Below, piece after piece: positions 22,613 to 56,136 of a stretch of 64,000 nt of DNA. The DNA is from Thermoproteota archaeon (GTDB lineage: Archaea > Korarchaeota > Korarchaeia > B14-G2). Below the pieces are notes generated by a model. It did not search any database, had not been told where the DNA came from, and saw only the letters and a program-made list of their open reading frames with translations. Both the position numbers and the translations under genes were made by a program. Positions within the stretch are counted from its first letter, which is position 1. Each line of letters opens with the position of its first letter. The DNA is taken from assembly GCA_037917675.1 (NCBI GenBank), contig JAVCBW010000036.1, positions 1 through 64,000 on the forward strand. The letters run 5' to 3'.

Positions 22613-23650
22613 CTACTGCACTTCATGCCTGCTCTTCTTCATCTCAGCAAGCTTCACAACTGAGGTGAGCTTCTCGATCTCTGATGCCTCAATATACCCT
22701 GTCTCGACAGCCCTATTGAAGAAGCCTGCTCCATCTTTGGTTCTCACTAGGACAGTAGAGAATCCCGCCTTCGTCCCTACTGAACCGACTGAAATGTCCG
22801 CGAGCTCGCTTGTGAAATCTGTGCAGAGCTCACAGGACTTACGTATATAATCCTTCATTTCACTGACAGGCTTTGAGAACACCTCCTCACTGCCGCAATA
22901 GGCTATGAACCTCCCCTTTTTTATGTCAAACCTCGTGACCTCCTCTAAGCTTACAGAGCTTTCCTCTAGTAGCTTGATAAGCTTCCTGTAGTCAAAGGAC
23001 TCCATGCAGAAGAGCCCGACTATGAGCTTCACTCTCTTGCCAAGCTTGAGAGCCCCCTTAGGAGAGTACTGCATCCTTCTCACCCCTCTAACCACACATG
23101 GTGTCCCCACTATCCCTATCTTCTCAGCTCCATAGCAGTAAGCTGCATCCCAGAGGGCAGAGGCCATGTGTGGAGGCGTATACTTTGTGCCAGCTGCCTC
23201 CACGACTTCTTCAGGAGTCAAGGCGACTTTCGCATATGGTCTCCATGCCTCCTCTCTTGAGACCCCTGCTACAATCACAGCGTCAAGCAGCCCCCTCTCT
23301 AGAGAGAACTTCAGTAGGGCAGTGACTACTCCTCCATCCTGCCCCCTCTCTTGTATCGTCGGATCTATGGCTCTAGCCTTATATGCCTTGGTGAACACTC
23401 CAAGAGGCCCTGGCCTGCTGCTGCCAAACAGTAGCCTGTATTCTTCACCACCTCCTGTCTGAGGGCAGCTGTTATAGCAGAAGCCGCATCTGAGGCATAG
23501 GCCAGCGAGCTTCGGTGTGTCATCAGCTATTGTAATCGCGTTCACGAAGCATGCTGACACGCATGTACCACAAGCAGTACAGGCTTCTGCTCTAATAACT
23601 TCCTTAAGGAGGTGTGCAAACGTCTTTCTAGGCAAGGAGCTACGCCTCAT
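22613..23650 (-). CDS. FrhB/FpoF-family F420-binding flavoprotein with N-terminal 2x[4Fe-4S] ferredoxin (FpoF/FqoF-like architecture)
   Basis: CTACGTC..AC and CLRCGFC..SC; GQDGGVVT, GTKY, VGTPC, GLFC, C..C.DF...ADISVG. Confidence 0.85.
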   Translation of the reverse strand: MRRSSLPRKTFAHLLKEVIRAEACTACGTCVSACFVNAITIADDTPKLAGLCLRCGFCYNSCPQTGGGEEYRLLFGSSRPGPLGVFTKAYKARAIDPTIQERGQDGGVVTALLKFSLERGLLDAVIVAGVSREEAWRPYAKVALTPEEVVEAAGTKYTPPHMASALWDAAYCYGAEKIGIVGTPCVVRGVRRMQYSPKGALKLGKRVKLIVGLFCMESFDYRKLIKLLEESSVSLEEVTRFDIKKGRFIAYCGSEEVFSKPVSEMKDYIRKSCELCTDFTSELADISVGSVGTKAGFSTVLVRTKDGAGFFNRAVETGYIEASEIEKLTSVVKLAEMKKSRHEVQ

Positions 23651-23958
23651 AGCTCTTCAAAGCCTAGTACATGCCTAACTATCAAGTCTACGGCTTCGCT
23701 GACATCTACCTTCAGTATCCTGCTTGCTTTCTCCTCAGCCTCCTCCTCTATCTTCTTTGCTTTCATGCTAGCCTCCTTAATCTTCTTCTCCTTGATCTCC
23801 TCAGCTTTATCTAGTGCCCTCTTCTTCTCTCTCTCAAGTATCTCCTTAGCCTTCTCCTCTGCTTCAGCGAGCAATTCGCTGCTCTTTCTCTTAGCTGCCT
23901 CAACTATCCTCTTAGCTTCCTCCTCTGCCTTGATGATCTCGAAGAGGATGTCACTCAT
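23647..23958 (-). CDS. A/V-type ATP synthase peripheral stalk subunit H (G-like), probable
   Basis: IKAEEEA..IVE.A charged coiled coil ending EAVDLIV..VL; ATG 23958 has GGTGA RBS and TTTAAA about 28 nt upstream. Confidence 0.62.
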   Translation of the reverse strand: MSDILFEIIKAEEEAKRIVEAAKRKSSELLAEAEEKAKEILEREKKRALDKAEEIKEKKIKEASMKAKKIEEEAEEKASRILKVDVSEAVDLIVRHVLGFEEL

Positions 23959-23993
23959 CAGCTTCACCCAGCTTCTGACTCTCATTTTAAAAT

Positions 23994-25499
23994 TTAACCT
24001 GAGACTCTGATGAGCTTCTCACTACCTGTAGACTTCTCTCTGATCTTAATTACAGCTGCCTGCGGGAGTGCTAAGGCGATGTAGCATAAGCCTTTAACAG
24101 CCTCCTCTGCTGGAAGCCCAAGTGAAGCTCTGAGCATGGCTGAGGCCTCTATGGCACATGGATCCTTAGCCCTATAGCAGCTCACTTTATCTCCTCCTGC
24201 TGCCTCAACTAGCACTACACGCTCCCCCAACGGGTCCTCTACTCTAGCTGCGTAAAGGCCCTTACCTGCCTTTCTAGCGACTCTAGCTCTGAAGGCGCCT
24301 GTAGGAGCTGCATCGAGAGCCTCGGCAGCAATATCTGCTGCCTCAACAGCTTCCTTGAGCTGAAGCCTCAAGATGCCAGCTAGATCCCCGCTACTTTCTG
24401 TGAGAGCCCTCTTCTTCAGCTCACTGTATGCTGCATAGGGTGCATCAACTCTGACATCTAGAGCAAGCCCACATGCCCTAGCAGCTAGTCCAGCAGCCCC
24501 CTCAGCTGCATCCCTGAGCCTATACAGGCCACTAAGCTCCTCGAAAACCTTGTCTGCTGTCTCGCTTCCCTCAAGCTTCTCCTTAACTTCACTTAACCGT
24601 CCAGCTAGCTCACTAGCTCTATCTCTCCTGACATCGAATGCGACACCACCTATCAGGACTGCTCCAAATCCTAGAGGGCTTCCTGTCAATGATCTCAGCC
24701 AATCTACCAGCAGCTTCCCAGCCTCCCGTCCCTCCATCCAGGCATGTCCAAGCCACTCAAAGAACCTTGTTAAGTGCTGCACATGTGAGAGAGCTCTCTC
24801 CACCTCAAGAAGCATAGTTCTAAGATACTCTCCTCGCAGCGGCGGCTTTACGCCAAGAGCCTCTTCAGCAGCCATCGAATAACACACAGCCTGAGCTATA
24901 GGATGCCTTCCAGCTCTCTCAGCTAGGAGAAGCCCCTTAAATAGCCCCTGCTCTTCAATCATCTTCTCAATGCCATAGTGCATTCCTCCGATAGCCAGAG
25001 CTACCTCGCTGACTTCACCACCATCAGTCAGAGCAGTGATGGATACTTCTCCACTCAAGCTTGCTGCAGCCAGCTTCTCCCTCAGATCGCTGGCGCTCGC
25101 CTTAAATGGATGCAATCCACTAGGCCACCCTTCAGGTAGGAAACTGATGTTATCCTCGGCTTCTCCACTGAACTCTACACCAAGCAAGCTAGATATCTCC
25201 CTTTCATAGACCTGTGCACCAGGATAGATGCTGGCACTTGAAGCAAGCTTCCATCCTCTAGTTGCTAGAATGACCTCTCCTCTTCTGCTAGCTAACAGAT
25301 ATCTGACTAGAGGCCTTTCTTCCCTCAGGCATGCAGAAATATAAGCCAGCCTGAATCCCGCTCCTCTAAGCCTCCTCAAGGCTCCAGCTAGGGAGGATGC
25401 CTCGATCCAGGCCTCCACTCTGTATTTCTCGAGCTCTCTTATCTCAGCAGCATCCTTAATCAAGCTTCTAGCGAGCTCAAGTAAGCTTCCTGGCATCAT
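23994..25499 (-). CDS. Degenerate group-4 hydrogenase/complex I NuoC-NuoD fusion lacking Ni-Fe ligands
   Basis: NuoC motifs YPGAQVYERE..LLGVEF and LPEGWP.GLHP; NuoD motifs H.GIEK, YLRT..LE.ER..SH, IGGV..D, RACG...DVR...PYAAY, RVE.P.GE; no RxCGxC or DPCxxC; start ATG 25499 with GTGGTG RBS. Confidence 0.75.
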   Translation of the reverse strand: MMPGSLLELARSLIKDAAEIRELEKYRVEAWIEASSLAGALRRLRGAGFRLAYISACLREERPLVRYLLASRRGEVILATRGWKLASSASIYPGAQVYEREISSLLGVEFSGEAEDNISFLPEGWPSGLHPFKASASDLREKLAAASLSGEVSITALTDGGEVSEVALAIGGMHYGIEKMIEEQGLFKGLLLAERAGRHPIAQAVCYSMAAEEALGVKPPLRGEYLRTMLLEVERALSHVQHLTRFFEWLGHAWMEGREAGKLLVDWLRSLTGSPLGFGAVLIGGVAFDVRRDRASELAGRLSEVKEKLEGSETADKVFEELSGLYRLRDAAEGAAGLAARACGLALDVRVDAPYAAYSELKKRALTESSGDLAGILRLQLKEAVEAADIAAEALDAAPTGAFRARVARKAGKGLYAARVEDPLGERVVLVEAAGGDKVSCYRAKDPCAIEASAMLRASLGLPAEEAVKGLCYIALALPQAAVIKIREKSTGSEKLIRVSG

Positions 25500-25592
25500 A
25501 GCACCACTAGGCCTGTATGCAGGGTTCAATAAGGTTACTAGCCTACTGCCTCCAGCTATGGCAAAACTTATCTTAAGGCCTATAAGCCCCAT

Positions 25593-26183
25593 ATGGTGCC
25601 CTGCTTGCATGCCGTGTCTGGATCTAAACTCACTCACGTTGCTATCGGCTTATGTAGCAGCTGTTCAAGGCAAGTTGAGGCTGCTTTGAGCTCTATGGAG
25701 ATAGAGCTTAAGGAGAGCATACTAGTTGTCTCAGGCCTACCATCTCACATAAATCTACATGAGATACAGAAGGTTTGGGAGTCTCTACCAGACCCCAAGA
25801 TTGCTATAGCTGTGGGGGTATGCGCCTGTACTGGTGGAGCTTTCAGAGAATGCTATATGTATAGGGAGCTAAGCAGCATCATACCTGTCAAGATCATGGT
25901 TTCAGGATGCCCACCGCCTGAGGAGGCTATTCTAAAAGCTATCAGAGGAGAAGCAGCTTCGCTTCACATAGAAGGCTATAGGGGCCCTCCTACCATAGAC
26001 GAGAACCTATGCATTGCATGCGGGCTATGTACTCAAGAGTGCCCATCTAAGGCGTTAGAGGCAGAGGAGGGGGGGAAGCCAAGGCTCAACCAGTGGGTAT
26101 GCATGAGCTGTAGCAGGTGTGAAGCCATATGCCCGAGAGGAGCTGTGAAGGCGTCTTCTATGTTCACCGTGATCTTCAGGTAG
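25593..26183 (+). CDS. Group-4 hydrogenase small-subunit (NuoB/HycG-like) domain fused to a NuoI-like 2x[4Fe-4S] ferredoxin
   Basis: CSSC, PDPK.AIAVGVCACTGG.F, SGCPP; then YRG.P, CIACGLC..ECP, CMSCSRC..ICP. Confidence 0.78.
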   Translation: MVPCLHAVSGSKLTHVAIGLCSSCSRQVEAALSSMEIELKESILVVSGLPSHINLHEIQKVWESLPDPKIAIAVGVCACTGGAFRECYMYRELSSIIPVKIMVSGCPPPEEAILKAIRGEAASLHIEGYRGPPTIDENLCIACGLCTQECPSKALEAEEGGKPRLNQWVCMSCSRCEAICPRGAVKASSMFTVIFR

Positions 26184-27250: not shown

Positions 27251-28279
27251 CTATACCGATCTAAGCAGGGAGATTCCAAGAGCTCCTATAGCCTCTAGGA
27301 GTGGTATCCTTCCAGCAAGGTAGAGCTGGGCGACGAGCTTGTCCCCTGCTTCAGCTACAGCCCTGCTTCTTAGCTTCTCTGGGATAGCGACTGTCATCTT
27401 GAGTACAGTCTTACCTATCTGAAACCTCCTTCCAAAAGCTTCCCTCCAGAGCTTCTCATAGCGTCTAGTGAAGCATATCCTCCCAGAGAAGAGGGCATAC
27501 TTTATCCCCTCCCCACTAGAGGGCATCACAAGGCCAGCTGCTTCGCCAGCAGCTACAACACCTTTAGCTGAAAGCTTCCTTATTGGGCCGCTGACACATA
27601 CTGGCGCAGCTCTGATGCTGCTGCCAAGCTCCAGCCTAAGCCTCCTCAAACCAACCTTAAGCCAGCTCTCAAGATTCCTCACGCTGGAAAACCCTCCTAC
27701 ACCGAAGTTCACGCTCCCATCGCCTCTGGGAAAAGCCCAGCCATACCCGAAGGGAAGTATACTTATCAGGATCTCATCTTCACTTAGCCTACCCTTACAG
27801 TAGCACTGTAGAGCTGGAATAGACCTATACCCATGGTAGTTAAGCCCCCTCCATCTGGCTATGCTGCCAGGGTTCCCACTTGCATCCACGATAAGATCGT
27901 ATTCAAGCTTACTCCATGGTTTCACGCTTCTCCCCATTCTGACGACAGCTCCCTCTGACTCTGCTGCTTCCTTAAGCTCTCTGAGCATAGCCTTCTTGTC
28001 TATGATGTACCCGAAGGTGCTAGTAGCGTCTATTCTCTGAATAGGCTCCCAGTGCAAGCACAGTAGGCATCTAGTTACCTTGTTTAATATGAAGCACCTG
28101 CATCCTGGCGGTAGATGTCTCAGCGCATCCTCTGGTACTCCCTCTCCACACGGCTTAAGACCAAGCTCACGATTCCTCTCGTATACCACCACATCATGCC
28201 CAGCCTTAGAAGCCCAGTATGCACAGCTCAGCCCAGCTACTCCAGCTCCCACGACTGCTAGCCTCAAGCCTCCTCCCAT
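27251..28279 (-). CDS. Geranylgeranyl reductase-family FAD oxidoreductase
   Basis: VVGAGVAG, KPCGEG, YGWAFP, GEAAG...P.SGEGI; start moved to ATG 28279 (or TTG 28267). Confidence 0.8.
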   Translation of the reverse strand: MGGGLRLAVVGAGVAGLSCAYWASKAGHDVVVYERNRELGLKPCGEGVPEDALRHLPPGCRCFILNKVTRCLLCLHWEPIQRIDATSTFGYIIDKKAMLRELKEAAESEGAVVRMGRSVKPWSKLEYDLIVDASGNPGSIARWRGLNYHGYRSIPALQCYCKGRLSEDEILISILPFGYGWAFPRGDGSVNFGVGGFSSVRNLESWLKVGLRRLRLELGSSIRAAPVCVSGPIRKLSAKGVVAAGEAAGLVMPSSGEGIKYALFSGRICFTRRYEKLWREAFGRRFQIGKTVLKMTVAIPEKLRSRAVAEAGDKLVAQLYLAGRIPLLEAIGALGISLLRSV

Positions 28280-28532
28280 GTCCTCATAACTGTTATAAAC
28301 AGCTTCCCTAGCGATAGATGCCTCAAGAATGGTGTTGGCTAGACCAGACGACTTTGATACCTTGCTCCAGGCTATGGCCAGGAACGTGCTTTTAGTCTTA
28401 CTATCCGTAGCTCTAGCATCAGTAGGGCTCTCCATTACAGTGTTCATATGAAGTAGAGGCTTTTTTTCTTCTATGGTTAATACTTTTAAGCTATCCATCG
28501 TGAAGGTTGCTGAAAGCCCCTCGGGGGGTTAT

Positions 28533-41171: not shown

Positions 41172-42284
41172 TTGGCTGACCCCACCGAGTCTTCTCTCGA
41201 TCACAGCTATCTGGAGATGAAGAGGCGTGATTTCCTGAAGCTTGCTGCCGTAACCGGCACCTCCATAGCGCTCTCACAGGTTAAGCCTATTGTCCTGGAG
41301 GTATTAGCTCAAGCGAAGGACTACGTACACATCTGCTGGCTGAATGGAGCAGGATGCACAGGCTGCAGCATATCCTTCGCTCAGGCAGCTGACCCAGACA
41401 TCATAGAAGTGCTCTGCAGCATAACAGTAGGGAACTCAGGGCTTCCAATAGCTCTACCAGACTGGATGTATGTCATACACCCTGCAGCCGGCACCCTAGG
41501 AGTAGAGCTCATAGAGGAGTGGATAGCTCACAAGGGACCAGGCCCCAAAATCATGGTAGTAGAGGGAGCAGTGCAGAAACCAGGCTTCTGTGAGACAGGT
41601 GAAAGAGACTTTAGAGACTGGGTCAAAGACTGTGCTGCTGCAGCAGACTACATAGTCGCATTCGGCTCATGCTCAGCCTACGGAGGCATCCCTCATGCTA
41701 AAGGTAACGTCACTGGAGCAATGGGGGTACAGGAGTTCCTAAAGCAAGCTGGGATGGCTGAGAAAGCGAAGGCCGTTATAAACCTCCCAAGGTGCCCTGG
41801 GCACCCAGACAGCCTGATACTGACCCTAGCAAGCCTGATAGTAGGCGTAGTCCCAAAGCTAGATAGATACAATAGGCCTCTAATGTTCTATGGGAGGAAC
41901 ATGCATGAGGAGCTTTGCCCATATAGGCCCTTCTATGACAGAGGCATCTTCGCTGAGTTCGGGCAGAGCGAGCAGGGATGCAGGTTTAAGATAGGATGTA
42001 AGGGCCCAGTGGCTTGGACAGACTGTGCTCTGAGGAAGTGGAACAATGGGGTAGCATACTGTGTTGAGGTCGGTGCACCATGCATAGGCTGCTCTGAGCC
42101 AGACTTTCCAGACGGCGATACAGCACCCTTCTTTAAGGAGCTCCCTACACTGCCGACGATACTAGGGATACCAGTGGAGACGTGGGCTAAGGCATTCGCT
42201 GGGGCAGCTGCAGTAGGTGTCGGAATACACCTAGCAAAGAAGATTGCTACGAGAGGAAAGGAGGGGGAGGAGGGAGGTGAGTGA
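41172..42284 (+). CDS. Group 1 [NiFe] hydrogenase small subunit with Tat signal and C-terminal membrane anchor
   Basis: KRRDFLK; CTGCS, GSC, CPGHP (proximal cluster); H...C, C...GCKGP (distal); PCIGC (medial); hydrophobic tail. Confidence 0.92.
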   Translation: MADPTESSLDHSYLEMKRRDFLKLAAVTGTSIALSQVKPIVLEVLAQAKDYVHICWLNGAGCTGCSISFAQAADPDIIEVLCSITVGNSGLPIALPDWMYVIHPAAGTLGVELIEEWIAHKGPGPKIMVVEGAVQKPGFCETGERDFRDWVKDCAAAADYIVAFGSCSAYGGIPHAKGNVTGAMGVQEFLKQAGMAEKAKAVINLPRCPGHPDSLILTLASLIVGVVPKLDRYNRPLMFYGRNMHEELCPYRPFYDRGIFAEFGQSEQGCRFKIGCKGPVAWTDCALRKWNNGVAYCVEVGAPCIGCSEPDFPDGDTAPFFKELPTLPTILGIPVETWAKAFAGAAAVGVGIHLAKKIATRGKEGEEGGE

Positions 42285-44014
42285 GCTTGGCCAAGTTTAG
42301 AGTGGATCCTATCAGCAGAATTGAGGGCCACCTCAAGATAGAGTGTAAGATCGAGAGGAAACCTGAGCTGAACAACGAGTACTTTGTGACAGAATGCAAG
42401 GCTCCAGTCACGATGTTCAGAGGATTTGAGATATTCCTCAGAGGGAGAGACCCTCGTGATGCTGTGCTGATAAACCAGCGCATATGCGGCGTATGCCCAC
42501 ATCCCCATGCGCTAGCTACAGTCCAGGCATTAGATGATGCGTTTGACGCTGTACCACCTCCAGCTGCAGTCCTAATCAGGAACATAGCCTCAAGTGCCTA
42601 TTACCTATACGACCACCTGATACACTTCTACCTTCTGATAGGCCCTGAGCTAGCTGTCCTAATGGGCCCAGAGCATGGTGCTCCAATACTCCCACCAGTC
42701 CTCGGCAAGGAAGGGCTGGCGAAGGGAATAGGTACACACTATGCGGAGTGCGTCAGGGTGCAGCGTAGAGCTAACCAAGTTGTCGCACTGTGGACAGGGA
42801 AGTTTCCTCATGCAGCAAACTACTATCCTGGTGGAGTCTTAGTTGAGCCGACCCTAGACAGGATAGCTAAGTCTGTTGCAGCCATGGTAGATGTCTGGGA
42901 GTTTGTAGCCTTAACTCACATACAGGACATAATGAACCTGATAGAGGCTAATGAGAGGCTAAAGGAGGTGACCGGAGATGCTCTGGGAGCCAATGTAGGG
43001 CTAGAGGACATAGGAGTGACGACAGGGAACTTTCTATCCTATGGGATGCTTCCCTGGCCAGAGGACTATGAGTCAGATTGGCTGGAGACATCAAGGCGTG
43101 AGAAGTCTGTGATAAAGGCAGGCTGCTGGTATGATGGGTCAAGGCATCCACTAGACGAGAATAAAATAACAGAGGATGCCAAGTACTCCTGGTATGATGT
43201 TCCTGACGGCTTACATCCATGGGAAGGTCAGACCGTTCCAAACCGCAACAAGCCTGGAGCCTACACATGGACTAAGGCACCACGCTACGACGATAGAGTC
43301 TGCGAAGTCGGCCCGCTGGCCAGAATGCTGAACACCATGGGCACAGAGTGGAGGATCCCCAGGGTACATCCGATAACAGGAGAAGATTACGGTGACTTTG
43401 TCTATAGGGTCAGAAACCCTAAGGGATCGGTCCTCGACAGGGTGGTTGCCAGAGCAGCTTGTGCCCTGATATGTGCTAATGTAGCATTCGATTTCCTGAA
43501 AAGTCTAGCTAGCCTGGTCAAGGCAGGGATGGCAAAGAACCTAAACTACAAGCCAGTACCAAAGGAGGCTAATGGAAGGGGGCTATGGGAGGCTCCAAGG
43601 GGAGCACTAGGCCACTGGGTCAAGATAAAGGGATACAAGATAGAGAGCTGGCAGGCAATAGTCCCAGGAACATGGAACTGGAGCCCACGTGATAGCAAAG
43701 ACAGGCCAGGAGCAGGAGAGCATGCAATCCAATGTGGGACGACATGGATACCTACACTGACAGTGCCTGAGCTAGCTAACGCACTGTACCCAGGCTGGGG
43801 GGACACCGTAGCAATGGCTTTAACAAAGCTCAACCCGAAGCTGGCTGGCCTCAACATGGAGCCAACTGACACAGGTGAGAAGGTTAATGCTACCCTACCG
43901 CTGATAATAGTAAGATCGTTTGACCCCTGCCTGGCGTGTGGTGTGCACATCATATCACCGAGTAAGAAGACCTATGTGTTTGAGCTCAAGCATGGCTTAT
44001 GCAGCCTATACTAG
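42281..44014 (+). CDS. Group 1 [NiFe] hydrogenase large subunit
   Basis: RIEGH, L1 RICGVC, EAPRGALGHW, L2 DPCLACGVH plus cleavable C-terminal extension. Confidence 0.94.
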   Translation: MSLAKFRVDPISRIEGHLKIECKIERKPELNNEYFVTECKAPVTMFRGFEIFLRGRDPRDAVLINQRICGVCPHPHALATVQALDDAFDAVPPPAAVLIRNIASSAYYLYDHLIHFYLLIGPELAVLMGPEHGAPILPPVLGKEGLAKGIGTHYAECVRVQRRANQVVALWTGKFPHAANYYPGGVLVEPTLDRIAKSVAAMVDVWEFVALTHIQDIMNLIEANERLKEVTGDALGANVGLEDIGVTTGNFLSYGMLPWPEDYESDWLETSRREKSVIKAGCWYDGSRHPLDENKITEDAKYSWYDVPDGLHPWEGQTVPNRNKPGAYTWTKAPRYDDRVCEVGPLARMLNTMGTEWRIPRVHPITGEDYGDFVYRVRNPKGSVLDRVVARAACALICANVAFDFLKSLASLVKAGMAKNLNYKPVPKEANGRGLWEAPRGALGHWVKIKGYKIESWQAIVPGTWNWSPRDSKDRPGAGEHAIQCGTTWIPTLTVPELANALYPGWGDTVAMALTKLNPKLAGLNMEPTDTGEKVNATLPLIIVRSFDPCLACGVHIISPSKKTYVFELKHGLCSLY

Positions 44015-44680
44015 GTGTCCTCTATGAAGCTGAAGAGGGTTCGAGTTAAGCGGCATACGCTGGTTTTCAGGATACTACACTGGCTCATAGTAGTGGAAGG
44101 TATCACACTGGGGCTAACAGGCCTCCAGCTTGGTGGAATATGGGGTGTCAGGATACTGCCAGGTGGGATGACGAGAGCAGTACACGTCGTAGCAGGGTTA
44201 GCATGGTTCTTCACGGCTCTCCTCTTCACCCAATACTTCCTGTCCAAGGACTACAAGTGGTATAGCATAGGGAGGATCCCCTACTCGATATCATACATGA
44301 TAGCAGAAGCTAAAGCATGGCTTGGAATAGGCCCCCACCTAGAGGAGCCGATAAGATACGACCCTAAGAGGAAGAGGTATGTAGAGAAGATAGTGCCGAC
44401 AGAAGCCATGGTATGGTGGATTTTCCTGGTATTAGGCTTGATAATAGCTTTCACAGGGCTGGCGCTAGCTTTCACAGAGTACTTCCCCCTAGTCTATGAG
44501 ATAGCTGGAGGCCTAGCAGCAGTCCTTGGAGGAGGACCATACTCCATGGTCAGAGCAATACATAGAGCAGCTGCAGCAGCGATCCTAGGAGTAGTCATAT
44601 TACACGCCTATGCGGCAGTAGTCTTCAAGATGCTCCGAGCAATAACCCTAGGGTACAGAGATGAGCCAGTAGCCGAGTAG
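44015..44680 (+). CDS. Hydrogenase b-type cytochrome subunit
   Basis: Four TM helices with His ligands (RILHW, VHV, IHR, LHAY). Confidence 0.88.
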   Translation: MSSMKLKRVRVKRHTLVFRILHWLIVVEGITLGLTGLQLGGIWGVRILPGGMTRAVHVVAGLAWFFTALLFTQYFLSKDYKWYSIGRIPYSISYMIAEAKAWLGIGPHLEEPIRYDPKRKRYVEKIVPTEAMVWWIFLVLGLIIAFTGLALAFTEYFPLVYEIAGGLAAVLGGGPYSMVRAIHRAAAAAILGVVILHAYAAVVFKMLRAITLGYRDEPVAE

Positions 44681-44699
44681 CACTCCTATTTTTTCTAAG

Positions 44700-45176
44700 T
44701 TGAGGATAGTAGTTGTTGGAATAGGGAATATACTGAGTGGAGATGAGGGGGTAGGTGTTCATATAGCTAGGAAGCTGAAGGCATATAGGCTTCCTCCAGG
44801 AGTAGAGGTTTATGACTGTGGGACAAGCGGGGTAGCTCTCTTAGAGGCACTAGATGGAGCAGATAAAGCCATCATAGTAGATGCAGCTTTAACTGGAGGT
44901 AAGCCAGGGGAGATATCGAGGCTAACCTTAAGTGACCTAGAGAAGCTAGAGTCTTCTCTCCTCACTATGGCATCACTACACCACCTAGACCTAGTAACTA
45001 CACTACATGTAGCTAAGCTGACAGACGCATATAAGCTACCTAAGGATGTGGTTATATTAGGTATTGAGCCATGCTCGCTTGAGCCTAGCATGGAGCTATC
45101 TCCTATCCTAAAGAGGAAGATGCCTGAGCTGATAACCACTGTGATACAAGAGATCCATCGTCTACTAGGCGAGTAA
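44700..45176 (+). CDS. Hydrogenase maturation endopeptidase (HyaD/HycI family)
   Basis: GIGN....DEGVG, D.GT, IVDA, SLH, LS. Confidence 0.92.
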   Translation: MRIVVVGIGNILSGDEGVGVHIARKLKAYRLPPGVEVYDCGTSGVALLEALDGADKAIIVDAALTGGKPGEISRLTLSDLEKLESSLLTMASLHHLDLVTTLHVAKLTDAYKLPKDVVILGIEPCSLEPSMELSPILKRKMPELITTVIQEIHRLLGE

Positions 45177-45370: not shown

Positions 45371-46288
45371 ATGTCATCAGCTGAGCAGCTGCTGAAGAGC
45401 AGGCTTCTGAAGCCTGACCTCACCACTCTAAAGCTAATGGATGCCTACATTAAGCTTACCAAGCCAAAACAGACCTTTCTACTTGTTTTGACGTCAGTAT
45501 TCACATACATAGGCTTTGGTGGTAGGTCTCTAGCAGATCTCATGAAGCTCCTTACTGCTATCACTTCCTCAGTTTCTGGGTCTACAGCCATCAATATGGT
45601 GCTGGACTCCGATATAGACTCCATGATGGACAGGACTAGGATGAGGCCTATACCACGTGGCATAGTCTCTGAAGCTAGGGCTGCAGTATTCGGTATCATT
45701 CTCATTTCACTTGGATTAGGGCTGTCTACTCTACTAAACTCATGGGTTGTGTTATCTGTTATGCTCGGTATCATGTTTGACCTGTTAGTGTATACGCTTT
45801 GGGCTAAGAGAAAGACTCCTCTCTCGATAGTATATGGTGGTGTTGCTGGAGGAGCTCCCTCCTTAGCAGGTTATGCTGCTGCAAGAGGGTGTTTAGATCT
45901 GGTTTCTCTCCTCGTAGTGCTGATAACAGCAGCCTGGATTCCAGCTCACGTCTGGTACATTTCAATATACTACATAGAGGACTACAGGAAGGCTGGAGTA
46001 CCCATGCTTCCAGTAGCTGTTGGTATAAGACAGGCTGCCAGGATAATCACAGCATTTATAGCTATGATGGTCCTAGCAGAGCTCTTTCTCTTCTTGATAG
46101 GAGAGTTCAGCATCATCTACCTAGCTATAGCTCTGATACCAACCCTCTTCCTTCTCTATAAGGCAGCCATCTATGCTAAGAACCCGAACATAGAAGATGC
46201 TAGACGGATGTATAAGCTGGCTTCACCAGTAGAAGGGCTGGCTTTCATGGCTATGCTAGTAGATCGACTGCTATCAGGCTTCCTATAA
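45371..46288 (+). CDS. cyoE: Protoheme IX farnesyltransferase (heme O synthase)
   Basis: LTKP, N...D.DID..M.RT..RP, YT...KR, GG.AG..P, W.P.H, DY..AG.PM.P. Confidence 0.88.
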   Translation: MSSAEQLLKSRLLKPDLTTLKLMDAYIKLTKPKQTFLLVLTSVFTYIGFGGRSLADLMKLLTAITSSVSGSTAINMVLDSDIDSMMDRTRMRPIPRGIVSEARAAVFGIILISLGLGLSTLLNSWVVLSVMLGIMFDLLVYTLWAKRKTPLSIVYGGVAGGAPSLAGYAAARGCLDLVSLLVVLITAAWIPAHVWYISIYYIEDYRKAGVPMLPVAVGIRQAARIITAFIAMMVLAELFLFLIGEFSIIYLAIALIPTLFLLYKAAIYAKNPNIEDARRMYKLASPVEGLAFMAMLVDRLLSGFL

Positions 46289-46290
46289 CC

Positions 46291-46590
46291 TCACTTTTCC
46301 TTTTCCTCCTCAAGCCGCTGGACGATCTCCTTAGCTATCTCCTCTGTACTCTTCCCCTCAGTGTTTATTCCAAGCTTTTCAGCAGCTTTCATCAAGGCCT
46401 CTCTCTCCTCTGCAGCTTTCCTCTTCTTTTTCTCCTCTACATCCTCCTCTTCCTCAAGAAGGCCTGAACTGGCCTTCCTATACTCGTATATCGCTTTTCC
46501 TATGCCTCTAGCCAATTCAGGAAGCTTTTTCGGCCCAAATAGCAGTAGAGCTATTGCAAGGATAGCCACTACCTCCCACGTACCTAGCAC
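46291..46590 (-). CDS. tatA: Twin-arginine translocase TatA
   Basis: E...I....LLLFGPKKLPELARGIG; GTG start. Confidence 0.9.
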   Translation of the reverse strand: MLGTWEVVAILAIALLLFGPKKLPELARGIGKAIYEYRKASSGLLEEEEDVEEKKKRKAAEEREALMKAAEKLGINTEGKSTEEIAKEIVQRLEEEKEK

Positions 46591-47133
46591 ACTATCCCCA
46601 GAGAAGGTACGGCAGCTATCCCATTTTAAGCTTATACCCCAGCTAGTACATAGACTTATTCCAGCAGATGTGAGTAGGCAAGCGGAATCTGCCTTCTATG
46701 ATGTTGTGTTGAGCTCTCTACTGATAGCTGATGGAGACTCATATGACGGTATTAAGTAGCAATAGTGCTCAGCTATAACAGTAGTGCTAGGATGCAGAAG
46801 ATCATGATCTATGTGAGCTCAGAGCTTAAGCAGGGGTGTCAAGGGATAAGACATGGGAGGCTTTTCTCTGAGCCAGCTAGGTCAAATGATGCCACATATT
46901 GGCGCTAAGAGAATCTATGCAGAAGTTTAAGTGCTAGCAGAGGTTCATAGAGGAGAGAAGTCTACTGATAGCAGCTACCGCTACATTGCATGGAAGACTT
47001 CTCTCGTAAAAAGCTCCGTTATGGAGGTTCAAGAAGTGCAGGCTTCTCTGGCACGATGTCACCATGTCATATGCGACGGAAGTATGCTATGGTCTTATAG
47101 TAAATTTTCTTAACAGCAGATTAGGGGGGTCCC

Positions 47134-48039
47134 TTGAGAATCATATCCTTCTGGGGTAAAGGTGGTGTAGGCAAGACCACATGCTCAGCTTCTATAGCAG
47201 TTCGGCTAGCTAAAGGTGGCTATAGAGTTCTGCTGGTCACTAGCGACCCCACCCCATCTCTGTCAGATATACTTGGCATCAGCCTTAATCCTCAGCCAAG
47301 GGCTGTGAGCGGCTCTCTGTATGCTGCTGAACTCGATGAGAATGCCATAGTTGAGATGTGGAAGAAGAGATTTGGAGACGAAGTCTATGATGTAGTGTCT
47401 TCTTTTCTACCTGTTGGAGAGGAGATTATAGACTACATTGCTGGAGCTCCTGGCATAGGATTCGAGTTCATGCTCTGGTACATCCTAGACAAGAAGTCCA
47501 CTGGAGAGTATGACTTTATAGTCTGGGATACTGCTCCTGCTGGTGGAGCTTTGTCCCTAGTGAAGCTAGAGGAGCAGCTCTACAGTCACTTAAGTGATGC
47601 AGCAGCAATTTACCTGAAGATCAAGTCTACACTAGACAAGATAAGGCGTAAAGAGAAAGCTGATCCCCTCAGGCTGATAAGCAGCTGGAGGAAGCTAGCT
47701 GAGGACGTGCTGGCCATGCTTGCCTCCCCAGATTTCGAAGCATACATAGTGACTATACCAGAGTGGCTAGGGTATACTCAAGCTAAGCGCATAATGCGAG
47801 AGCTAGCTGCATTCAGCATAAGGGTACGCAAAGTAATAGTTAACCAAGTCTTTCAGAGAGAAGCATGCAACTGCAAGCCTTGGGTCAAGAAGTCAGAAGT
47901 GCATGCCAAGTACCTTAAGCTCCTTCAGAGAGAGTTTGGAGAGAAGCCCGGTATCGCGGTGATACCGATGCTCCCAGAGGACATTCAGGGAGAAGAGAAG
48001 CTACTAAGCTTCTCAGAGTACCTTAAGGGGGTGCTCTGA
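47134..48039 (+). CDS. ArsA/GET3 (TRC40)-family ATPase, single domain
   Basis: GKGGVGKTT, SDP..SL.D, DTAP.G, VNQ. Confidence 0.88.
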   Translation: MRIISFWGKGGVGKTTCSASIAVRLAKGGYRVLLVTSDPTPSLSDILGISLNPQPRAVSGSLYAAELDENAIVEMWKKRFGDEVYDVVSSFLPVGEEIIDYIAGAPGIGFEFMLWYILDKKSTGEYDFIVWDTAPAGGALSLVKLEEQLYSHLSDAAAIYLKIKSTLDKIRRKEKADPLRLISSWRKLAEDVLAMLASPDFEAYIVTIPEWLGYTQAKRIMRELAAFSIRVRKVIVNQVFQREACNCKPWVKKSEVHAKYLKLLQREFGEKPGIAVIPMLPEDIQGEEKLLSFSEYLKGVL

Positions 48040-48746
48040 TGACATATGGTCTCTCACGGCAGCTCTGGGTTTCCGTGGAGCTAGCCTTGAGAGACACAAT
48101 TCCATGCTATGAGCAGGTAAACAGAGTAATAACTCTAGGGCTCTCAGGCGTCATGAGGTCTAAAGTGCTTGGCTCCCTCCCCCTCAGCCCTGGCTCTAAG
48201 GTTCTAGATATCGGATGTGGCCCAGGCCAGTCTTCTATCATTTTAGAGTCTAAAGTACACCCGGGTGGAGAAGTATGTTGCCTAGATATCCTCCCCGGTA
48301 TGGTCACTTCTCTGAAAGAAGCCTCATCAGGCCTCTCTTTAAGTCCTGTGTTAGCAAAGATGGAGGAGTTGCCTTTTCAAAGCGAGTCTTTTGACTGCGT
48401 CGTCTTCTCATATTCTCTCAGAGACTCCTTAAACCGCATAAGGGCTTTAGCTGAAGCACATAGGGTGCTGAAGCCTAGAGGACTGCTAGCTATACTAGAT
48501 CTATTCAAGCCTGAAGTCAGAATATGCCAGGAGCTCCTCTCCATGTATCTCAAAAAACTGGTTCCTCTAGCTGCAATCGCAGTATGCGGCTTGAGAGGCA
48601 AAGCTTGGAGAATGCTTCATCCAACATACCAGCTCATGTGGACTCTAAGCTCTCTCAAGGACGCTCTAGCTAAGGTAGGCTTTGTAGTACTACAGGTCAC
48701 ACGAGCACTAGCCTTAGCTGGAGTTGTTGCCAGAAAGGTGGTTTAA
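48039..48746 (+). CDS. UbiE/MenG-like class I SAM methyltransferase
   Basis: Y...N..I.LG, LDIGCGPG, LPF...FD, LR......L.E..RVLKP.G, Y....VP. Confidence 0.75.
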   Translation: MTYGLSRQLWVSVELALRDTIPCYEQVNRVITLGLSGVMRSKVLGSLPLSPGSKVLDIGCGPGQSSIILESKVHPGGEVCCLDILPGMVTSLKEASSGLSLSPVLAKMEELPFQSESFDCVVFSYSLRDSLNRIRALAEAHRVLKPRGLLAILDLFKPEVRICQELLSMYLKKLVPLAAIAVCGLRGKAWRMLHPTYQLMWTLSSLKDALAKVGFVVLQVTRALALAGVVARKVV

Positions 48747-50431
48747 TGAGGGTCGATGTAGCTCTCATACATCCTCCAAGTGTATATGACTTCAGAGAGC
48801 TTCCATCTTATGCTGGCCCAATGAGCGAGGTAGTTCCATCACTTTACGTATTCGACATGTACCCCTATGGGTTCCTAACGATCTCAACACATCTAGAGGA
48901 AGCTGGTTTCAGAGTTGGAATATTCAATATAGCTGCAAAGATGCTAGCAGACAGAAAATTCAGCCCAGTCAAGCTCCTTAAGAAGCTGGATGCTGACGTC
49001 TATGCGATAAGTCTCCACTGGCTTGTCCACGCTCATGGTGCGCTAGAGCTAGCTAAAGTCGTCAAGAGCCTTCACCCAGAGTCTACAGTAGCACTCGGAG
49101 GCTTCTCAGCAACATACTACTGGCAGGAGATAATGTCTCACTACCCCTACGTAGACATCATAGTCAGAGGAGACTCTACAGAGGAAGTAATGAGGCAGCT
49201 AGTAGAGAGGATAAGCCAACACAGAAGCTTAGAAGGAGTTCCCAACATAGTATGGAGAGAAGACAGCAAGGTGAGAGCTGAACCAATATCACACGTCCCC
49301 ATCGACTTCAATAGCAGGATAGACCACTGGATCATAGCTAAGAACCTCCTAAAGACAAGAGACATGGACTTGACATCCCCCTTCTATGGGTTCAAGGAGA
49401 AGCCTGTAACAGCAGTCATCACAGTAAAAGGCTGCACATTCAACTGCATAACATGTGGAGGCTCAGCATCAGCCTTCAGATGCTACCTAAATAGAAGCAG
49501 TGTTGCGCTGAAGCCTCCAGATAAGATAGTGGAGGAAGCTGAGTCTATAGCAAGCATGATATCTGCTCCAATATTCTTTGTCGGAGATCTGAGAATAGGA
49601 GGTGAGGAGAGAGCATTAACTATAGCAAAGGCGCTGAGAGAAGCTGACTTAGGAAACGACCTCTTCTTCGAGCTTTTCTACCCAGCCTCAAGGAGGGTCC
49701 TCCAAGAGCTAAGGAGAGTAGGAGACAGCATATACCTACAAATCTCACCTGAATCGCCAGTAGAGGAAGTTCGAAGAGCATTTGGGAGGCTCTATGGCAA
49801 CAGTGAGCTGGAGAAAACGGTGAGAAATGCAGTGCACCTTGGTTTCAAGAGGATAGACCTCTACTTCATGATAGGACTCCCCCTACAGACACCAAGCCAT
49901 GCTGACAAGCCTGCAAGCTACCTGCTACATGTCACGCAGGAGGCTGGCGTCAAAGGGAGAGTAGACGCATTTGTAGCTCCTCTAGCTCCATTCGTTGACC
50001 CCGGCAGCCTAGCTTTTGAGAGCCCAGGCAGCTATGGCTACATGATCCGGTGGAGAACTCTGTCCCAGCACAGAAAGGCCCTGACAGAGGTACACTGGAA
50101 GCACTCTCTAAACTACAGGACAAGCTGGATGAGCAGAGAGGAAATATCTGAGTCCTCAGCGAGAGCAATAGAGGAGATGGCGAAGGCGAAGCTCAGGCTG
50201 GAGCTCATAACCAGAGATCAATATGAGCTCATATCGAGGAGAGTAGATCTTGACAGGAGGATATCTAGTCTAGCTGCACACATGCATAGAGACGAAGTTT
50301 CTGAGGCCATAAGAGATCTAATCGAAACAGAATACAAGGCTACAGAAGACCTCTACCCGTCAAGAAGATTATCTAGAAGCCTAAGGCTACCACTCCACTT
50401 AAAGCTGCTCGCCAAGCTTCTGATCAGGTAG
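48746..50431 (+). CDS. B12-binding/radical SAM protein (class B; resembles Ta0216/TIGR04190 family)
   Basis: D..LIHPPS.YDFR, F.MYP.G, LHWL.H.HG, RGD.TE, CTFNCITC (CxxxCxxC), FMIGLP, PFVDPGS. Confidence 0.8.
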   Translation: MRVDVALIHPPSVYDFRELPSYAGPMSEVVPSLYVFDMYPYGFLTISTHLEEAGFRVGIFNIAAKMLADRKFSPVKLLKKLDADVYAISLHWLVHAHGALELAKVVKSLHPESTVALGGFSATYYWQEIMSHYPYVDIIVRGDSTEEVMRQLVERISQHRSLEGVPNIVWREDSKVRAEPISHVPIDFNSRIDHWIIAKNLLKTRDMDLTSPFYGFKEKPVTAVITVKGCTFNCITCGGSASAFRCYLNRSSVALKPPDKIVEEAESIASMISAPIFFVGDLRIGGEERALTIAKALREADLGNDLFFELFYPASRRVLQELRRVGDSIYLQISPESPVEEVRRAFGRLYGNSELEKTVRNAVHLGFKRIDLYFMIGLPLQTPSHADKPASYLLHVTQEAGVKGRVDAFVAPLAPFVDPGSLAFESPGSYGYMIRWRTLSQHRKALTEVHWKHSLNYRTSWMSREEISESSARAIEEMAKAKLRLELITRDQYELISRRVDLDRRISSLAAHMHRDEVSEAIRDLIETEYKATEDLYPSRRLSRSLRLPLHLKLLAKLLIR

Positions 50432-52771: not shown

Positions 52772-53389
52772 TTGATGTCAGTGGAGGTTGCTGGAGACTA
52801 CCATAAGATTACAGAGGCGCTCCTTGAGAAGGCTAGGAGTGAGGCTAACGATATAATTAGTGAGGCTAGGAATAGAGCTGAAGCCAAGATTAAGGAGGCT
52901 GAGGAGAGAGCTAAAGCTGAAGCTGAGGTTCTGCTTGAATCCAAGATCAGAGAGGCTGAAAGGGAGGCTGAAAGGCTCCTTATAGATGCAAGGTTCAGAG
53001 GTAGGCAGAAGCTTGCTCAGGCTAGAGAAGAGCTTGTGAAGAAGGTGTTTAAGGAGGCTGAGGAGAGGATTCGAAGGGAATATGGTGGCGAAGCCTTAGA
53101 GAACCTGATGATAAGGTCAATTGAGCTCGCTGGCACAAGCAACCTTATAGCATATGTCAGCGAGTCAGATCTCAATGTTGCAGCTAAGATAGCTGAGAAA
53201 ATAAAGAGAGAGCATGGAGTTAGGCTGAAACTCGAGGCTTCTCCTATGGTAAAGGGTGGTATCATAGTCAAATCCACCGACGGGAGAATTGTGGTTGACA
53301 ACACCCTTAAAACCAGGATTGAGCAGGCCAAGAAGAGGCTTAGGCCTCTCATCGCTAAGATAATCCTTGAGAAGGCCAAGGTGTCCTGA
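52772..53389 (+). CDS. atpE: A/V-type ATP synthase subunit E
   Basis: N-terminal coiled coil, GGII...DG.I.VDNT...R. Confidence 0.88.
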   Translation: MMSVEVAGDYHKITEALLEKARSEANDIISEARNRAEAKIKEAEERAKAEAEVLLESKIREAEREAERLLIDARFRGRQKLAQAREELVKKVFKEAEERIRREYGGEALENLMIRSIELAGTSNLIAYVSESDLNVAAKIAEKIKREHGVRLKLEASPMVKGGIIVKSTDGRIVVDNTLKTRIEQAKKRLRPLIAKIILEKAKVS

Positions 53390-53709
53390 TGAAGATTGTA
53401 GTGATAGGAGACGCTGACACTATAGCCGGCTTCAAGCTAGCTGGTGTGACTGAGGCATATGAGGTAAGTGAAGAGAGCCCTAGGGAGTCAGCTAAGAGAG
53501 CTGTCAGAATGCTGCTCAACAGGAGAGACGTAGCTCTAGTGATCATAACAGAGAAGGCTGCTGAGCTAGCTAGAGAGGAAATAGAGATGTTCAGGGAGAG
53601 GATGTACCCAATTTTCATAGAGATCCCAGATAGAGGTGGCCCTAGGCTTCCAGCTGAAAGGAAGTATAAGGAGATGATAAAGAGGGCTGTTGGAATAGAA
53701 GTAGGCTGA
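53389..53709 (+). CDS. atpF: A/V-type ATP synthase subunit F
   Basis: IGD.DT..GF.LAG, P...EIP, IKRAVG. Confidence 0.92.
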   Translation: MKIVVIGDADTIAGFKLAGVTEAYEVSEESPRESAKRAVRMLLNRRDVALVIITEKAAELAREEIEMFRERMYPIFIEIPDRGGPRLPAERKYKEMIKRAVGIEVG

Positions 53710-53720
53710 GGTGAAGCTAA

Positions 53721-54362: not shown

Positions 54363-54451
54363 CTCTACTTCCGCATGTAACTGTAGGCGAAAGAATTATA
54401 AGTTAATCTCTGAAGCCCCAACCTGAAGAAAGAAGCTTAAAGGAGATTACA

Positions 54452-56131: not shown

Positions 56132-56136
56132 CAAAA

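Follow-up and report, generated by a model that had tools for sequence, protein, structure and literature searches.

What can a protein do that has kept the scaffold of a hydrogenase or complex I large subunit when neither a Ni-Fe site nor a quinone site is left in it? This question is raised by two divergent genes in a 64,000-nucleotide stretch of DNA from a member of the Korarchaeota (the window), which encode a fused NuoC-NuoD/HycE-type large subunit (CD-like) and a fusion of a NuoB-type small subunit with a NuoI/HycF-type 2x[4Fe-4S] domain (B-I). To our knowledge, Ni-free hydrogenase-like proteins (NuoD, FpoD, Ehr, MBS) have hitherto been described only in membrane-bound, ion-pumping complexes. 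A word search of the main text of open-access literature found no description of a soluble Ni-free NuoCD-type protein together with a NuoB-NuoI fusion and FrhB. A related question, raised in PMC7886697, is which partner FrhB has in Thermoproteota that possess an 'orphan' FrhB and lack hydrogenase subunits.

Organization of the locus

The minus strand carries an operon in the order CD-like, H-like and FrhB-like gene, with short gaps or overlaps between the genes, and the same order is found in genome G001. CD-like (501 aa, 23994..25499) was assigned by Pfam, alignments and AF2. It is followed by a coiled-coil protein of 112 aa (H-like, 23647..23985) and by an Fe-S flavoprotein of the FrhB/FpoF type (345 aa, 22613..23650), which consists of an N-terminal 2x[4Fe-4S] domain plus FrhB_N/FrhB_C and whose start overlaps the stop of the H-like gene by 4 nt. 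The first-pass annotation of this DNA had linked the pair to the flavoprotein as a nearby gene; the link is stronger than that, CD-like and the flavoprotein being encoded in the same operon. B-I (196 aa, 25593..26183) lies on the plus strand and contains ligands for three [4Fe-4S] clusters.

The full minus-strand ORF extends over 23994-25637 from a GTG and has an internal ATG at 25499. This ATG is supported as the start of CD-like because two 1-nt indels just upstream of it, seen in the DNA alignment of the window with G001, would disrupt the extended frame; the N-terminus of the orthologue (MSPNGAMMAG) and a conserved TATA-like CTTATTGA about 29 nt upstream also favor it. Given this start, the intergenic gap is 93 bp (25500..25592), and the ORFs, both open, and the gap are as first annotated. 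TATA-like elements (CTTATYT) are located about 26-30 nt upstream of each of the two ATGs, with an imperfect palindrome at the center of the region, which presumably functions as a divergent promoter. It is 81% identical to G001, the genes on either side showing about 0.65 differences per synonymous site, and this conservation together with the palindrome suggests regulated expression.

Large subunit

CD-like matches the Pfam families Complex1_30kDa (PF00329; E 1.1e-8, 36 bits, cut-off 22.5) and Complex1_49kDa (PF00346; E 1.5e-14, 54 bits, cut-off 24), with no match to PF00374. The AF2 model is very confident (pLDDT 95, pTM 0.94) and shows the HycE/NuoD scaffold with an N-terminal NuoC domain. 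Its closest fold is HycE (7z0s_E, TM 0.84/0.80), which is also the best PDB sequence match (E 2.3e-23). The residues of the scaffold that are conserved throughout the superfamily are nearly all present, and the tail following L2 (AAVIKIREKSTGSEKLIRVSG) aligns with the extensions that group-4 hydrogenases in the match list have at their C-terminus. Pfam, fold and tail alignment thus bear out the NuoC+NuoD/HycE scaffold with a group-4-like tail that had been recognized in the first place.

The ligand motifs of group-4 [NiFe] large subunits, RxCGxC in L1 and DPCxxC in L2, are absent from CD-like. L1 reads AERAGRHP in the window and AERAGRYP in the orthologue, and L2 reads YIALALP and YMALMTP, respectively; as had been claimed for the window, all four Ni-Fe Cys are replaced, and this holds for both family members. 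The L1 region is among the best-conserved stretches of CD-like (0.86-0.90 identity vs 0.64 overall). The model for group-3 FrhA (TIGR03295) is absent among the matches.

CD-like equally lacks the two features of complex I NuoD, namely the GPxHP...HG loop and the Tyr by cluster N2. Where the genome's own NuoD reads IGPQHPGSGH, CD-like has AASLSGE and a shorter loop without His, and the GPxHP loop is missing in both family members, in agreement with the first-pass annotation. In an HMM alignment Arg198 of CD-like aligns with the Tyr of DRLDY in NDUS2; the quinone-site Tyr next to N2 is one that we take to be Tyr87 in Thermus Nqo4. NCBIfam NuoD models reach 82-107 bits on CD-like vs cut-offs of 360-522.

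Maximum 19-residue Kyte-Doolittle values do not exceed 1.6 in either CD-like or B-I, so neither protein has hydrophobic segments. No genes for NuoH-like or Mrp antiporter-like membrane subunits are present in the locus, and none are to spare in the genome (92.7% complete), where the one NuoH and the three antiporter-like genes all belong to the nuo operon. The pair is therefore without membrane subunits of its own, as had been noted.

In a FastTree phylogeny of 103 rows the pair falls inside a 35-row set of fused HycE/4f/Ehr-type proteins. A PMSF quick tree of 53 rows places it on a branch of 2.6 substitutions at an unresolved node, outside the 15-row Cys-less (Ehr-like) clade (98 in this quick tree). 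The Cys classes in these trees come from simple regular expressions, and sequences shorter than 340 aa were dropped beforehand. Trees in which the pair was forced to join the Nuo clade (lnL +17.0, p-AU 0.845) or the Cys-less clade (lnL +13.8, p-AU 0.811) both score better than the quick free tree, and no origin of the pair is claimed from them.

Fused small subunit

B-I matches Oxidored_q6 (PF01058; E 2.4e-16, 60 bits, cut-off 27) and Fer4 families in Pfam. It contains the motifs CSSC, GVCACTGG and GCPP, i.e. the ligand set of a proximal [4Fe-4S] cluster (CxxC or CC, GxC, GCPP), followed by two CxxCxxCxxxCP motifs. All 12 cluster Cys are present in each of the three B-I orthologues, which upholds the earlier description of a small subunit with hydrogenase-type ligands fused to a 2x[4Fe-4S] ferredoxin. 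The first motif is a CxxC, a spacing reported for MBH and cytosolic [NiFe] hydrogenases, whereas the two Cys are adjacent in complex I (PMC7684303) and in the genome's own NuoB.

Residues 42-130 of B-I are 31% identical to this NuoB, whose long N-terminus is missing, and an 11-residue deletion takes out the xxDxxRFG/PRxxD stretch. The ferredoxin part (about residues 120-190) shares 35% identity over 79 residues with the NuoI of this genome and has the NuoI/HycF arrangement of two CxxCxxCxxxCP motifs after (E)GYRG, including EGYRG itself. NCBIfam models for HycF, HyfH and NuoI match below their cut-offs. With this part being NuoI/HycF-like, each of the four subunits of the hydrophilic core (B, C, D, I) has its counterpart in the pair. 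An AF2 model of B-I from a 6-row alignment reached pLDDT 59.5 (below 50 in the ferredoxin part) and was left out of the fold search. A two-chain prediction of B-I (6 rows) with the FrhB-like protein (54 rows) gave scores of 0.35, 0.01 and 0.14 against a mark of 0.32, which carry no weight either way on binding.

Operon partners and F420

The FrhB-like protein matches PF04422 (E 1.5e-23), PF04432 (E 1.3e-46) and NF006807 (276 bits, cut-off 269). It has every invariant Cys of a 54-sequence alignment, belongs to the FrhB/FpoF family and is the sole member of that family in the genome. Its cofactor is presumably F420, for which the genomic context speaks: cofD, cofC and cofE are all found on the same contig, a second cofE adjoins a Mer-like gene, and the genome has two luciferase-family matches. 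A search for cofH (FO synthase) in the assembly, which is 92.7% complete, gave no match.

The H-like gene between CD-like and FrhB-like, with its conserved start probably at MSDIL (23958), is by homology most likely subunit H of the ATP synthase. It is the sole homologue of the A-type ATP synthase stalk subunit H in the genome and gives the single match there to TIGR02926, at 36 bits under the cut-off of 48.5. Homologues in genomes G011 and G023 sit in the arrangements atpF-H-E and H-E, and the ATPase cluster of the window comprises E, F, D, I, C, K, A and B, with H missing. A dedicated subunit in a module of CD-like, B-I and FrhB was considered and set aside, given the homologues in ATPase operons; membership of the H-like protein in such a module is doubtful. 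If the gene is an ATP synthase gene, as is most likely, a shared operon at this locus is no guarantee of a shared complex.

Proposed function

The CD-like/B-I core probably carries electrons in the cytoplasm, since it has no Ni site, quinone site or membrane part and CD-like is encoded in the same operon as an F420-type flavoprotein. The reading that we prefer, with confidence somewhat short of even, goes further and holds that the proteins form a complex in the cytoplasm, Frh-like in its architecture and Fpo-head-like in its ancestry, through which F420 is connected with an Fe-S wire. What we infer here is the formation of the complex, the mutual binding of the proteins, the substrate and the direction of electron flow.

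The two polypeptides between them supply B, C, D and I, the whole hydrophilic core of an enzyme of the group-4 hydrogenase or complex I type. Ni-Fe site, quinone site and membrane-coupling loops have disappeared from this core, and all Fe-S ligands remain. Most likely it would join the co-transcribed flavoprotein of the FrhB type in a cytoplasmic assembly, giving the architecture of an F420-reducing hydrogenase from parts that may descend from the peripheral arm of an Fpo/FHL-like enzyme. The FrhB flavin would exchange electrons with F420/F420H2 on one side and, on the other, with a wire of at most six [4Fe-4S] clusters, to which FrhB and B-I would contribute three each and of which the proximal cluster beneath the large subunit is the putative terminus. 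CD-like would serve as scaffold and cap for this cluster and act neither as hydrogenase nor as quinone reductase. Candidates for the other redox partner are a ferredoxin and a substrate that would react at the remodelled pocket.

A bolder version of the latter, to which we give a low probability, is that, within the hydrogenase/MBS/complex I superfamily, the complex represents the first soluble member with a catalytic end that uses neither Ni-Fe nor quinone. It would be a reductase of the cytoplasm, driven by F420H2 and fed through FrhB, in which the proximal [4Fe-4S] cluster at the remodelled pocket (conserved AGR(H/Y)P...Q..CY) passes electrons to a new soluble substrate, e.g. sulfane or disulfide. 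The analogy is with MBS, where chemistry can shift to the proximal cluster (PMC7684303).

The core has apparently come away from the membrane, been condensed to two fusion proteins and become genetically linked with an F420 flavoprotein. Should the complex exist, the B-C-D-I module would be reusable as a soluble electron-transfer device, and one answer would be at hand to what an orphan FrhB works with; as the pair is confined to one genus, that answer is limited to this lineage.

Alternative explanations

An unlikely alternative is that the module and FrhB dock on Nuo, either at NuoH in place of NuoBCDI or, as an input arm, on NuoI/NuoB, to give an Fpo/Fqo-like F420H2:quinone oxidoreductase. 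The true nuoA-N operon begins 2.3 kb from the locus in both species and lacks its own NuoEFG and FpoF, the FrhB-like protein is the only F420-type input protein of the genome, and the genes around the locus are quinone-related. Fpo and Fqo employ such an FpoF subunit (PMC7886697, PMC4543118), but FpoF docks in Fpo without needing a second B-C-D-I set. The Arg at the position of the quinone-site Tyr, and the missing N-terminus and 11-residue stretch of B-I, also argue against docking. In MBH, MBS and complex I the beta1-beta2 loop is one of three by which the peripheral arm is connected with the membrane arm (PMC7684303), and in CD-like this GPxHP/beta1-beta2 loop is short and shows the lowest conservation within the protein (0.24-0.38 identity). 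With two NuoH-facing loops shortened, docking on the complex I membrane arm, as had originally been suggested, is not supported.

It is also rather improbable that the pair works independently of FrhB, as a small Fe-S electron carrier, redox sensor or regulator, the operon reflecting shared transcription of bioenergetic genes only. The ATP synthase H homologue speaks for it, since it suggests that unrelated bioenergetic genes are co-transcribed here, as does the unusually conserved divergent promoter region with its palindrome. FrhB homologues, 33-39% identical in the relatives searched and 40-50% in a wider database, are common without the pair, which FrhB therefore does not require, and elsewhere adjoin genes for Mer, RACo, Hdr or glutamate synthase. 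On the other hand, domain and profile searches revealed no DNA-binding or signalling domain in either CD-like or B-I, and three wire-like clusters with a scaffold of 500 aa would be costly for a sensor.

That the pair is the decaying remnant of a group-4 hydrogenase with no function left is very improbable. CD-like and B-I do evolve faster than their neighbors, with 64% and 67-69% identity to the sister species vs 78-95% for most neighboring genes, and the family is tiny. However, the pair stands in conserved synteny in the one sister species with frames open in both, all Fe-S Cys are kept in the three B-I orthologues, and the scaffold residues and confident fold of CD-like are retained. The dN/dS is 0.165 for CD-like and 0.147 for B-I, compared to 0.04-0.21 for the other 15 of 17 syntenic gene pairs and to about 1 expected under decay; with dS near saturation (1.5) these values are rough. 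The pair is intact and under purifying selection. Recent decay, to be recognized by Cys in orthologues or a dN/dS near 1, had been named as the test of the first interpretation, and the orthologue likewise lacks the Ni-Fe Cys.

No other family member was found by a profile search of 1.84 billion representatives (1047 bits, next 146 bits). Among 87 pattern matches in genome contigs one was a relative, namely the sister genome; among 261 in metagenome contigs there were two, one being the sister contig again and the other a Mrp-linked locus of the ordinary Mbh/Mbx type (L066). The ESM Atlas gave HycE/NuoCD-type clusters only. The range of the family is thus one genus plus a 712-bp fragment, and statements on conservation are based on two or three sequences.

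It is hardly credible that B-I and FrhB serve an orphan group-3 [NiFe] large subunit of about 400 aa on contig C1 (47.2-48.4 kb; intact RICGIC and DPCISC, no adjoining small-subunit gene) as a true F420-reducing hydrogenase with CD-like as bystander, because the sister genome retains the CD-like/B-I/FrhB locus although its copy (73% identical) is preceded by dedicated genes for an MvhD-like protein and a 248-aa small subunit, and because the N-domain of B-I matches NuoB families and not group-3 small subunits (the FrhG model matches the ferredoxin part alone).

Comparison with known systems

Ehr are defined as group-4 relatives with a large subunit free of Ni-Fe ligands and a small subunit that keeps its cluster (PMC6349859). 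CD-like resembles the large subunit of Ehr, including Mbx/MBS, in this respect, but their operons contain NuoH-like and Mrp antiporter-like membrane subunits, of which there are none here. The present locus also differs in the four Cys retained for the proximal cluster, in the fusion of B to I and in the presence of FrhB in the operon.

Fpo and Fqo likewise combine a Ni-free B-C-D-I module with an FrhB-family F420 flavoprotein that has an extra 2x[4Fe-4S] domain. Both are membrane-bound and have a functional site for quinone or methanophenazine, whereas neither membrane subunits nor quinone-site residues are found here, and the present module coexists with a complete, separate nuo operon.

E. 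coli HycE shares with CD-like the NuoC-NuoD fusion and the C-terminal tail. Unlike CD-like, it has the four Ni-Fe Cys and sits on the membrane subunits HycC/HycD, and HycG and HycF are separate proteins, whereas their counterparts are fused in B-I.

The soluble FpoF of Methanosarcina mazei, a ferredoxin:F420 oxidoreductase as cited in PMC4543118, is also an FrhB-family protein placed in the cytoplasm between Fe-S carriers and F420. It works alone, whereas here a five-domain Fe-S module is genetically attached to the FrhB-like protein.

FrhABG (group 3a) provides the soluble three-part design of large subunit, three-cluster small subunit and FrhB that the gene content suggests for the putative complex. 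The large subunit here is of the NuoCD/HycE type (PF00329 plus PF00346, not PF00374) without a Ni-Fe site, and the small subunit joins a NuoB-like N-domain to a NuoI-like ferredoxin part.

Gene organization

The large subunit of the pair, a fused NuoC-NuoD/HycE-type protein (CD-like), lies on the minus strand in an open frame of 23994-25637, and the small subunit, a NuoB-type protein fused to a NuoI/HycF-type 2x[4Fe-4S] domain (B-I), on the plus strand in an open frame of 25593-26183, both delimited by ORF scan. ATG 25499 was taken as the CD-like start (23994-25499, 501 aa), because the orthologue start MSPNGAMMAG aligns with MMPG of the window, because two single-base indels relative to the sister species genome (G001) would break a longer frame upstream, and because a conserved TATA-like element precedes this ATG by about 29 nt. 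With this start the 93-bp gap of the first-pass annotation between the divergent genes is retained. The protein-database gene calls are 532 aa for CD-like and 165 aa for B-I; the latter would drop the N-terminal CxxC, and since this stretch is conserved in both other orthologues (called at 192 aa), the 196-aa form is the better call. The intergenic stretch 25500-25592 is 81% identical to G001, above the synonymous sites of the flanking genes, and TATA-like CTTATYT boxes precede both genes. A palindrome of 16 nt, TAGCTGCATGCAGCTA, is perfect in G001 and imperfect in the window, and may be a shared operator.

Downstream of the CD-like gene on the same strand follow a coiled-coil gene of 112 aa (H-like, 23647-23985) and an FrhB-type gene of 345 aa (22613-23650), the start of which overlaps the preceding stop by 4 nt; the unit is closed by a convergent CoA-binding gene. 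The 112-aa protein most likely represents stalk subunit H of the A-type ATP synthase, and is for this reason not counted as a proven part of the module. It is the sole AhaH-like match in the genome, with a score below the cut-off, and 23 of the 40 other genomes searched each carry a single full-length homologue, which in two relatives (G011 and G023) is placed in atpF-H-E and H-E arrangements. The ATPase cluster of the window (52772-62181) contains E, F, D, I, C, K, A and B, and H is absent there. The operon thus mixes bioenergetic genes, and if the ATP synthase needs the H-like gene, at least part of the operon would have to be transcribed.

Large and small subunits

CD-like matches Complex1_30kDa (residues 77-179, 36 bits) and Complex1_49kDa (residues 310-453, 54 bits) of Pfam weakly but above the curated cut-offs, and scores only 82-107 bits with the NuoD and FpoD models of NCBIfam, against cut-offs of 360-600. 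Among solved structures E. coli HycE (7z0s_E, E 2.3e-23) is closest in sequence, ahead of complex I 49-kDa subunits. A very confident AlphaFold2 model from 86 sequences (pLDDT 95, pTM 0.94) retrieved HycE as best fold match (TM 0.84/0.80) and E. coli NuoCD as second. The L1 site reads AERAGRHP in the window and AERAGRYP in the orthologue, the L2 site YIALALP and YMALMTP, so that none of the four Ni-Fe cysteines is present in either protein. The HMM alignment to plant NDUS2 pairs Arg198 with the Tyr of DRLDY, the residue that binds the quinone head group (Tyr87 in Thermus Nqo4). Where the genome's own NuoD has IGPQHPGSGH, CD-like has a shorter AASLSGE stretch, and the G-P columns that are near-invariant across the 86-row alignment have no match in the first row. 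The tail beyond L2 is similar to C-terminal extensions of true group-4 hydrogenases among the search matches. The first description of CD-like, as a NuoC+NuoD/HycE scaffold with a group-4-like tail in which all four Ni-Fe cysteines and the GPQHP loop are missing, is correct.

Residues 36-117 of B-I match Oxidored_q6 (Pfam, 60 bits). Its cluster motifs, CSSC (21-24), GVCACTGG, GCPP and two CxxCxxCxxxCP, all occur in the three orthologues (window, P0009 with 69% and P0010 with 61% identity). B-I is hydrogenase-like at the first motif, where it has CxxC, a spacing given in PMC7684303 for MBH and cytosolic [NiFe] hydrogenases as opposed to neighbouring cysteines in complex I, while the two cysteines are adjacent in the genome's own NuoB; compared with this NuoB and two other small subunits its N-terminus is short, and 11 residues after the CxxC are absent. 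Residues 120-190 share 35% identity with the genome's own NuoI, including the EGYRG motif ahead of the first cluster, and by this alignment the C-terminal domain is NuoI-like and not a generic ferredoxin, so that the two fusions together represent all four hydrophilic core subunits. Two proteins from other sources (P0011 and P0012, 267 aa each) are fused the other way round, with the 2x[4Fe-4S] domain at the N-terminus and a small subunit of hydrogenase type behind it, which indicates that B/I-type fusions arose more than once.

Conservation and origin

The gene order from phoU to nuoI is identical in G001 (QMWA01000001.1). Identity to G001 is 64% for CD-like, 67-69% for B-I, 81-82% for the FrhB-like and 81% for the H-like protein, and 93-95% for nuoB, nuoD and nuoH. 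Nei-Gojobori dN/dS is 0.165 for CD-like and 0.147 for B-I, and the remaining 15 of 17 syntenic pairs span 0.04-0.21; with dS about 1.5, near saturation, these values are rough, yet far from 1. In 21-residue windows against the orthologue, conservation of CD-like is among the highest in the L1 region and the next helix (0.86-0.90 identity) and lowest in the beta1-beta2 region (0.24-0.38).

Of 40 further genomes from the class and phylum, G001 alone has CD-like; the fused C-D proteins of four relatives are 36-44% identical to the window's true NuoD versus 26-31% to CD-like. A profile search of 1.84 billion representatives gave 1963 proteins at E <= 0.001 and five at E <= 1e-30, with 1047 bits for its own cluster and none other above 146 bits, and pattern scans of genome and metagenome contigs delivered no further family members. 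At the level of its genes the pair is real and selected, and it is known from a single genus.

The tree comprised 96 matches, all of at least 340 aa and Nuo types included; by regular expression 47 have all four cysteines, 37 have none and 12 are partial. The branch leading to the pair has a length of about 2.6 substitutions per site, and constraining the pair to the Nuo or to the Cys-less (Ehr-like) clade gives, in both cases, a tree at least as good as the quick free one. On character grounds, descent from a hydrogenase would be favoured over duplication of the adjacent nuoBCD: C and D are fused, the C-terminal tail is of hydrogenase type and B-I has the CxxC spacing, all three being rare characters.

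Genome context

The assembly (1.78 Mb, 62 contigs) is 92.7% complete. The FrhB-like protein, the only FrhB-family member of the genome, combines both FrhB domains with a 2x[4Fe-4S] domain at its N-terminus. It passes the NF006807 subfamily cut-off (276 vs 269 bits), but stays below the FrhB and FpoF equivalog cut-offs. Its family, in contrast to that of the pair, is large (2020 matches, many 40-50% identical, from Thermoproteota and other archaea); homologues of 33-39% identity in relatives adjoin Mer-like, RACo, Hdr/MvhD, glutamate synthase or CofE genes. One such locus (G023:C22:45.4-53.6 kb, L048), with an HdrA-MvhD fusion of 1149 aa, HdrC-like and HdrB-like proteins, an FrhB homologue, a GXGXG protein and a glutamate synthase domain, resembles an F420-linked cluster of Hdr or glutamate synthase type in a class relative.

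About 38 kb downstream on the same contig (window 62607-64000 on to G000:C53:66.2 kb; L032 2608-6154) gene content marks an F420 biosynthesis cluster, nitroreductase-cofD-cofC-(ECF S-component-like)-cofE. The transporter-like gene within it resembles a riboflavin-transporter S component and could serve uptake of the FO precursor. A second cofE adjoins a Mer-like gene, there is a second luciferase-family match, and cofH was not found in the 92.7%-complete assembly.

A group-1-like membrane-bound [NiFe] hydrogenase (41172-45176) is encoded with small and large subunits, cytochrome b and a HycI-type protease, followed at 45371-50431 by a UbiA prenyltransferase, an ArsA-like ATPase, a UbiE-type methyltransferase and a B12/radical SAM protein; with nuo and the ATPase included, the stretch amounts to a 35-kb bioenergetic island. 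The genome also has a Vhu/Mvh-like hydrogenase pair followed by hypE, while hypD and hypF are read from the other strand. A further group-3 [NiFe] large subunit (G000:C1:47072-48424, L033 7073-8428) with intact RICGIC and DPCISC is an orphan that has no small-subunit gene beside it. In G001 its orthologue (73% identical) has MvhD-like and 248-aa small-subunit genes directly upstream, for which no orthologous match was found in G000. Given these true hydrogenases and hyp genes, the nickel ligands were not lost for want of maturation machinery.

Of membrane-subunit genes, only one for NuoH and three antiporter-like ones are present, all within the nuo operon (28.4-38.4 kb), and none of the CD-like, B-I, FrhB-like and H-like proteins has a hydrophobic segment. 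A geranylgeranyl-reductase-like ORF (27251-28498, minus strand) has 415 aa from its first ATG versus 337 aa in G001; its true start is probably about 78 codons downstream, as the Rossmann motif begins at residue 79.

Proposed function

The simplest reading, held at somewhat less than even odds, is a cytoplasmic complex of FrhB-like protein, B-I and CD-like that links F420/F420H2 to an Fe-S chain: every Fe-S ligand is retained under selection, catalytic sites and membrane-facing loops have been lost, a spare membrane partner is absent, and the sole F420-type flavoprotein shares the operon. The three proteins would assemble in the cytoplasm, electrons would be exchanged between F420/F420H2, bound at the flavin, and a chain of as many as six [4Fe-4S] clusters, and CD-like would act as scaffold and cap for the proximal cluster. 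Soluble FpoF alone is on record as ferredoxin:F420 oxidoreductase (cited in an excerpt of PMC4543118), so that a ferredoxin-F420 link is plausible as the overall reaction, though it would not account for the extra module. A bolder version of this reading, rather unlikely, is that a new soluble substrate receives electrons from the proximal cluster at the remodelled pocket, in the manner of the cluster in MBS.

Among the rivals, which include the docking on the neighbouring membrane arm of the first-pass proposal, a role of the module as head or adaptor of the Nuo complex nearby is unlikely, with roughly one chance in five, the membrane-facing loops of CD-like being gone. Slightly less probable still is that the pair works without FrhB. 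Decay of the pair is very improbable with dN/dS of 0.165 and 0.147, far from 1 though rough, and service to the orphan group-3 large subunit is the most doubtful.

Comparison with known systems

Word searches of open-access papers yielded no description of such a module. The pair fits the sequence definition of the energy-converting hydrogenase-related (Ehr) complexes, the lack of Ni-Fe ligands, but not the architectural one, the membrane subunits, as given in an excerpt of PMC6349859. An F420H2 dehydrogenase (Fpo) head with FpoF has similar parts, which occur here without membrane arm and quinone site. The layout is like that of the F420-reducing hydrogenase Frh, but the large-subunit family differs. 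The parts of the module are of the type found in the head of Fpo or formate hydrogenlyase.
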